A DNA stretch of 64,000 bases from the IMG/VR virus record IMGVR_UViG_3300025723_000013; one strand, written 5' to 3'. A program made the translations under genes and the position numbers. This DNA is from a virus (Duplodnaviria > Caudoviricetes). The notes beneath the pieces are model-generated. The model was not told the DNA's origin. It saw nothing but the letters and a program-made list of their open reading frames with translations, and did no database searches. Positions 55,332-55,475 of the stretch are shown here, piece after piece (within the stretch, counting starts at the first letter, position 1; every line of letters begins with the position of its first letter).

Positions 55332-55475
55332 GTTGAGAGTACCCGCATTTCCGTTTAAAGGCTAGCATTTTCGCCCTCTACTGTTAGCCTGCTACCACAG
55401 CCATGGTTTGCAGTAGATTGGATCACCCACGCGGGTCTGGTAGTTGGTTAAACTCCTCGCTATCGGACTCTCAAC
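55332..55475 (-). ncRNA. Unidentified 144-nt structured RNA
   Basis: 9-bp terminal stem GTTGAGAGT/ACTCTCAAC, inner CCCGC/GCGGG stem and further hairpins; begins at predicted +1 of promoter 55482-55509. Confidence 0.65.

Follow-up and report, generated by a model that had tools for sequence, protein, structure and literature searches.

What does a large phage encode in a 144-nt element that lies among its transfer RNA (tRNA) genes and can be translated in no frame? The question arises from a 64,000-nt stretch of viral DNA, hereafter the window (IMG/VR virus record IMGVR_UViG_3300025723_000013; Duplodnaviria, Caudoviricetes), in which a first-pass annotation made from the letters alone had pointed to a structured RNA at positions 55332-55475, upstream of a tRNA-Asn gene, leaving the strand unnamed. 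A computational analysis of this locus places the element in a hitherto uncatalogued family of conserved structured RNAs in jumbo-phage tRNA islands, and shows that the RNA is read from the minus strand of the window. Throughout, RNA positions are counted so that position i stands at window coordinate 55476 - i.

The single sequence alone is not convincing. The closing stem described in the first-pass annotation (GTTGAGAGT/ACTCTCAAC) is present and, counting the flanking T/A, makes a perfect 10-bp inverted repeat; two more perfect 10-bp inverted repeats within 200 nt are found in the same 9 kb. The G+C content of the element (0.51) is above that of its surroundings, as the annotation had stated. 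The fold of the minus strand, which is the strand of the tRNAs, proved ordinary (z = -1.9; rank 368 of 2660 scanned windows in a minimum free energy scan regressed on composition), and that of the plus strand exceptional (z = -4.6; rank 5 of 2660 in the same scan). We accept the element as real because its homologues keep the closing helix P1, the nested helix P2 and two further helices with compensatory changes.

These homologues were out of reach of direct searches. The window belongs to an uncultured T4-like jumbo phage of ~284 kb, the DNA of which recurs on a 284-kb contig and, nearly identical, in other assemblies; two of ten such assemblies differ by a single base within a 2.7-kb region, which leaves no usable variation. 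BLAST of the element region against 50,697 phage records found nothing, and a scan of viral contigs for the closing-stem pattern with a free interior gave nine matches, all of them unrelated low-complexity or chance matches. Synteny followed through neighbouring proteins (a 193-aa protein at 57810-58391 and the glycosyltransferase) led to many relatives, all in other contexts. No match was obtained in 22 related IMG/VR records searched by whole-record BLAST and with R1, a covariance model built from the window sequence alone; the nearest sampled relatives thus lack the element, and in the two nearest large ones the space after tRNA-Trp is filled by protein genes. The element is free of open reading frames (ORFs), as the first-pass annotation held, with stops in all six frames, and a protein-gene remnant was rejected as its origin, tblastn of all ORFs from the tRNA islands of two relatives having yielded only noise.

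Relatives were reached through the variable-arm pattern of a tRNA-Ile(UAU) of the same island (loop CCAGAUUAG), which gave at least 120 phage tRNA-cluster loci. Among these, nhmmer detected a first homologue in locus L149 (E = 4.6e-13; 76.6 bits with R1), and two further search patterns were derived from the blocks common to L149 and the window copy. The family now comprises 25 copies confirmed by R1 (24 besides that of the window), amounting to 16 distinct sequences of about 138-165 nt; all copies sit in phage tRNA clusters, one per record, and all relatives are metagenomic fragments. In the window, the sole match of R2, a covariance model from 16 homologues, is 55475-55332 of the minus strand, at 119 bits (E = 3.8e-30). 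R2 found no match in any of eight complete phage genomes in which the unusual tRNA-Ile also occurs, nor in Vibrio phage 2.275.O, E. coli phage A4 and T4 (NC_000866), and the element is absent from the cultured jumbo phages with the most similar ClpA-like protein. Bacterial genome contigs gave eight pattern matches, all rejected by R2 (below 22 bits, pattern region only), and so no clue to the host. Rfam 15 holds no match over the window copy at the gathering threshold or at E <= 10, in agreement with the failure of the first-pass annotation to place the RNA in a common family, and none at E <= 10 over the element in relatives L203, L214 and L216. A literature search found no description of the family.

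The 16 sequences were aligned by MAFFT in the tRNA orientation, without structural information, and the structure was deduced by RNAalifold. The consensus contains 38 pairs, with 99.0% of 599 cells paired. Changes on both sides of a pair occur at 15 pairs (34 cells), compared to 4.8 and 6.5, respectively, in shuffled alignments, and the observed values were reached by none of 500 shuffles, a statistic that overstates independence insofar as the 16 sequences are related. Sliding the partner columns by 1-3 positions lowers pairing to 33-51%. The fold, whose lack of conservation had been named beforehand as a possible refutation, is thus conserved, and compensatory changes in homologues back the structured RNA that had been proposed.

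P1 has 8-9 bp, eight of them in the consensus, and is near-invariant in sequence: its core UGAGAGU/ACUCUCA is the same in all 16 members except for two G-U pairs, and its outer pair covaries. P2, which corresponds to the nested CCCGC/GCGGG of the first-pass annotation, is kept in the homologues with six pairs, 100% paired, four of which show changes on both sides. P4 has both-side changes at six of its eight family pairs and carries the apical hairpin P4b, nearly invariant in sequence across the family; a second apical branch, P4a, is found in 14 relatives and is absent from the window copy and its nearest relative, L188. All four pairs of hairpin P3' show compensatory changes (e.g., GGGC/GCCC, GAGC/GCUC and AGAU/AUCU). 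Some inner hairpins had been drawn otherwise at first: the AGGCTA/TAGCCT and ACCA/TGGT pairings are not conserved in the family, and CTGC/GCAG does enclose the conserved P4b hairpin, but is not itself conserved.

Between the helices lie two segments of conserved sequence. The 30-nt segment that follows P1 is identical in 16 of 16 members at 25 of its 30 positions and has no supported pairing within the RNA; likewise, the joining segment UUAAACGGA has no supported partner, and all 16 sequences agree in its UU-AACGG, save at one variable position. In total, about 60 bases are invariant in the family. A pseudoknot between GUUUAA of the 5' segment and UUAAAC of the joining segment was considered and rejected, the changes in L149, L185 and L206 not being compensatory in the alignment as judged by eye. 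No complementary target of the invariant segment was found within the window at up to three mismatches. The coordinates of the element and its surroundings are collected in Table 1.

Table 1 Features of the RNA element and its flanks, in window coordinates.
Feature	Position	Strand	Basis or remark
tRNA-Arg	55694-55618	minus	ARAGORN/Rfam cluster annotation
Upstream tRNA-Trp(CCA)	55538-55607	minus	Rfam tRNA, 35.4 bits versus cut-off 29; missed by ARAGORN
Promoter-like TTGCAG, 16-nt spacer, TGT-TATACT (extended -10 type)	55482-55509	minus	read directly; putative function
Whole RNA element, 144 nt	55332-55475	minus	covariance model R2
P1 5' strand (closing helix)	55467-55475	minus	pairs with 55332-55340
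30-nt 5' segment, consensus CCGARAGCGAAGAGUYUAACCAACUACCUG	55437-55466	minus	between P1 and P2
P2 5' strand	55431-55436	minus	pairs with 55341-55346
P4 5' strand	55411-55417	minus	RNA nt 59-65; pairs with 55377-55383
P4b apical hairpin GCU-GUGGU-AGC	55391-55401	minus	RNA nt 75-77 with 83-85
P4 3' strand	55377-55383	minus	RNA nt 93-99; pairs with 55411-55417
P3' hairpin (GGGC ... GCCU)	55359-55376	minus	RNA nt 100-103 with 114-117
Conserved joining segment UUAAACGGAAAU	55347-55358	minus	before P2 3' strand
P2 3' strand	55341-55346	minus	pairs with 55431-55436
P1 3' strand	55332-55340	minus	pairs with 55467-55475
Spacer from element to tRNA-Asn, 36 nt, weak hairpin	55296-55331	minus	RNAfold
Downstream tRNA-Asn(GUU), 89 nt, encoded CCA	55207-55295	minus	ARAGORN; Rfam tRNA, 46 bits

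The mismatches that the conserved helices tolerate tell on which strand the RNA is read. On the tRNA-sense strand, 36 cells are G-U and two are A-C, the latter being the would-be G-U cells of the opposite strand; leaving aside two pairs that RNAalifold could predict on the sense strand only, the figures are 11 G-U and two A-C. This excess shows that the RNA is read from the minus strand. In every tRNA-bearing locus scanned or read, the element has the orientation of the tRNAs. A plus-strand RNA, antisense to the tRNA leader, would account for the far better fold of the window copy on that strand; however, the high stability stems from a plus-strand-only helix (55437-55444 with 55459-55466) that the family does not keep, being 80% paired and without covariation, and with two of its eight positions unpaired in five and six, respectively, of the seven distinct sequences first collected. 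Nearly all genes of the window are also on the minus strand. An element acting as DNA, such as a cruciform, is argued against by the tolerance of G-U pairs, which speaks for RNA. We regard these two possibilities, even taken together, as highly improbable.

In the window, the RNA begins 6 nt past the end of a promoter-like site; in the relatives, an A/T octamer lies 2-5 nt upstream, reading GATATATA in nine sequences, TATAAATA, which is the T4 late-promoter consensus, in three, and variants of these in the rest. Just after P1, in 13 of the 16 members, RNAfold predicts a short hairpin whose sequence varies (e.g., CCUUAU/AUAAGG, CCUGUUU/AAACGGG and CAUAU/AUAUG); three of these hairpins have only 3-4 pairs and are weaker than -2 kcal/mol. 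In nine of the 16, tRNA-Ala(UGC) begins 10-16 nt after P1, the hairpin then overlapping the first 1-3 bases of the tRNA. In others an ORF stands between the element and the tRNA (a DUF6445 oxygenase in three, AhpC in one and DUF1508 in one), and the element is still attached to its upstream octamer. Such varied downstream genes fit an independent RNA gene and not the regulator of one gene class.

This variety bears on whether the RNA is a ligand-sensing aptamer of the riboswitch type, controlling the genes behind it. The anatomy is aptamer-like, with a promoter followed by a P1-closed multi-helix junction with invariant joining nucleotides, and 8-16 nt separate P1 from the start of the genes. 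No expression platform can be seen, however: there is neither a terminator nor a ribosome-binding site to sequester, and P1 is followed by just the short variable hairpin, with no U run, abutting the tRNA. What lies downstream is heterogeneous (tRNA-Ala, tRNA-Asn, a 2-oxoglutarate (2OG)-type oxygenase, a peroxiredoxin and DUF1508), and no riboswitch family of Rfam matches. A riboswitch is therefore, in our estimation, distinctly unlikely.

We propose that the element is a stable, promoter-proximal small RNA that is made together with the tRNAs, released by RNase P and active in trans, a proposal that we put forward tentatively, with confidence a little short of even. It draws on the conserved fold, the sense strand, the position heading a unit that continues into a tRNA, the long invariant unpaired segments and the varied downstream genes. 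The putative promoter directly upstream would set the transcription start at the closing helix or a few bases inside it, and the transcript would continue into the next tRNA. RNase P is the enzyme that makes all tRNA 5' ends, and its cut at the 5' end of this tRNA would free the RNA as the 5' product of the precursor. The released molecule is predicted to be ~150-180 nt long, its 5' end locked in P1 and a small hairpin at its 3' end, both of which are features of stable RNAs. A stable RNA of this kind would act in trans by way of the single-stranded segments that are invariant, and probably as the RNA component of a complex with protein; that P1 and the 30-nt segment are so invariant points to a specific molecular partner, which is most likely a protein.

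Several observations weigh against this proposal. There is no terminator after the RNA, which may mean that it never exists as a separate molecule; no partner protein gene is conserved beside the element; and the folding energy of the window copy on the functional strand is not unusual (z = -1.9). The putative promoter is assigned by resemblance to the sigma-70 extended -10 and T4 late consensus sequences only. Finally, the position, always at the outset of a transcription unit, is no less suited to a cis-acting leader.

Such a 5' leader of the tRNA unit, folding as it leaves the polymerase and acting on its own transcript, is the principal alternative, one with an appreciable chance of being right, albeit unlikely on balance. 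It could render RNA polymerase resistant to termination on a long untranslated tRNA array, an effect known from the put RNA of HK022 and the boxA leader of rrn operons, or protect the 5' end from decay. The element always stands directly behind the promoter-like motif and heads the unit, the downstream unit stays attached to it even where an ORF is inserted before tRNA-Ala, and the closing helix, in the manner of 5' stabiliser hairpins, begins with the base predicted to be transcribed first; nor is there a terminator after the element. On the other hand, the resemblance of GAGUUUAACCAA to boxA (GCUCUUUAACAA) fails in the GCUCUU core, only one copy is present per record despite the several tRNA sub-clusters and promoters of these phages, and close relatives with similar tRNA arrays lack the element altogether. 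The partial resemblances to boxA, to the CR-I region of RNase P and to a 16S-complementary stretch are not claimed as evidence. The put sites of phage HK022 and the boxA of rrn leaders are comparable in that a folded or conserved RNA directly follows a promoter and heads an untranslated operon; they differ in that the boxA-like stretch of the element departs from the core and that the element occurs once per genome fragment.

A further possibility is a catalytic RNA of a new kind, self-cleaving or otherwise, that would assist in cutting the tRNA precursor. About 60 invariant nucleotides between covarying helices are reminiscent of ribozyme cores, the element lies in a precursor that must be cut, and small ribozymes, among them the hepatitis delta virus (HDV)-like theta ribozymes, are known on the flanks of phage tRNA genes. 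Against this, no known ribozyme model matches at E <= 10 (including, over 54900-55900, the Rfam models of hammerhead, HDV/theta, twister, twister-sister, pistol and hatchet), the promoter directly upstream leaves nothing to cleave on the 5' side, and RNase P can cut on the 3' side. We consider a ribozyme of this kind very unlikely. The theta ribozymes are likewise structured RNAs adjoining phage tRNA genes; however, they measure ~60-70 nt and lie directly 3' of a tRNA, whereas the element is more than twice as long, stands 5' of a tRNA behind a promoter and is matched by no HDV-type model. Taken more broadly, it is unlikely, with a modest chance of being true, that the family is a new class of functional RNA with a biochemical activity of its own, be it as a ribozyme or as a ligand- or tRNA-sensing element governing the production of the phage tRNA set; if it were, the private tRNA supply of jumbo phages would be under the control of, or processed by, a type of RNA device not seen in cells.

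The closest parallels to the small RNA that we favour, and a precedent for it, are rnaC (species 1, 139 nt) and rnaD (species 2, 119 nt) of T4, likewise small non-coding RNAs of similar size that lie inside a T4-type tRNA cluster, on the tRNA strand, and whose function is unknown. These two are processed from the same precursors as the tRNAs. They are not homologous to the element, as R2 finds nothing in the T4 genome. Moreover, rnaC has a tRNA-like T arm (GGUUCGAAUCC; CCGGGUUCGAAUCCCGG), of which there is no counterpart in any of the 16 family members, and the T4 RNAs are at the 3' end of their cluster, after tRNA-Arg, while the element heads its unit behind a promoter-like site of its own. 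Under our proposal, the RNA would be a functional analogue, and not a homologue, of rnaC and rnaD.

The Y RNA-like YrlA RNAs of bacteria and phages (RF02553) are also ~100-150 nt long, have their ends paired in a helix of conserved sequence and, like the element, are found near tRNA genes in some phages; in contrast to them, the element has no tRNA-like domain. The Y RNA models RF02553 and RF00019 give no match over the element in the window, L203, L214 and L216, and a single weak YrlA match in L214 (1005-1134) falls on tRNAs, away from the element (250-413). GUCCGA beside P1 resembles the Ro-binding GGUCCGA of Y RNAs, a lead only, which the YrlA model does not back. A TROVE (Ro60/Rsr, PF05731) gene was not seen in five member contigs, which are fragments of 4-27% completeness.

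The element is not itself a tRNA or a transfer-messenger RNA (tmRNA). In Rfam and ARAGORN searches no tRNA match covers 55332-55475 at E <= 10, against scores of 35-60 bits for the four tRNAs that flank it; ARAGORN reports no tmRNA, and no model of the tmRNA clan matches at E <= 10. The frame that starts from the GCG of the 5' segment gives no tag-like peptide as judged by eye, and substitutions in this frame do not cluster at third codon positions.

Ever since T4, phage tRNA islands have been recognised as a home of small stable RNAs, the role of which went unexplained for decades. To the small RNAs co-encoded with phage tRNAs the present work adds a well-delimited, covariation-supported family that Rfam lacks, a concrete object for asking how large phages organise, process or regulate their own tRNA supply.

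A second conserved structured RNA ("unit B") is found 2 kb from the element, at 57641-57781 on the minus strand, directly upstream of tRNA-Ile(UAU), with a promoter-like site of its own (TTGACT-17-TAAAGT, 57813-57785). Homologues in L080, L172 and L112 were detected by nhmmer (E = 1e-9 to 5e-7), and in a four-sequence alignment compensatory changes affect 23 of the 43 pairs predicted, among them pairs of a closing stem of 13-19 bp. Membership of unit B in the family of the element was rejected, as neither R1 nor R2 matches it. The presence of a second, unrelated RNA in the same island suggests that such islands may hold more RNA genes than annotation shows.

The surrounding cluster of minus-strand tRNAs was detected by ARAGORN and Rfam. 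Its order, read 5' to 3' on that strand, is tRNA-Arg, tRNA-Trp, the promoter-like site, the element, the spacer, tRNA-Asn (in the downstream position that the first-pass annotation had given it), tRNA-Ser and a glycosyltransferase gene. The tail-fibre, ClpA-like and other genes of the window have only distant resemblance to those of T4-type and jumbo myoviruses.

Some tRNAs of the window are enlarged. The tRNA-Asn(GUU) at 55207-55295 (minus) has a 12-nt GAAA-capped hairpin (GAAC-GAAA-GUUC) inserted in the variable region, and otherwise keeps the Asn-tRNA features U1-A72 and G73; tRNA-Asn of the relatives is of a normal 76 nt, and an exact scan for the insert gave no matches. Likewise, tRNA-Thr(UGU), at 51854-51938 (minus), has 85 nt. 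The tRNA-Ile(UAU) at 57535-57629 (minus) has 95 nt and a long variable arm, the loop of which is conserved in sequence and the stem of which covaries; its pattern matches IMG/VR phage contigs, at least 120 of them. Normally, a long variable arm is a feature only of Leu, Ser, Tyr and Sec tRNAs.

A plus-strand ORF of 254 aa (phrog_23051, 55759-56523) overlaps the 3' part of an intact tRNA-Gly gene (56476-56548) and is bordered on its other side by a diverged copy of the tRNA-Gly 3' end, ending in CCA (55695-55743). Its relatives in jumbo phages also sit on or beside tRNA genes, and it has the look of a mobile gene with tRNA genes as its targets. The glycosyltransferase gene (53936-55060, minus) has ~71% DNA identity to its counterpart in Synechococcus phage S-CAM7, and ~80%-identical proteins are found on thousands of phage contigs, in very dissimilar gene neighbourhoods; this is a cargo gene that phages exchange widely.

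No local fold in the window, on either strand, is stronger than that at 40596-40739 (z = -5.3), where a near-perfect hairpin of ~23 bp lies between two minus-strand genes and could serve as a terminator or an RNase III site.
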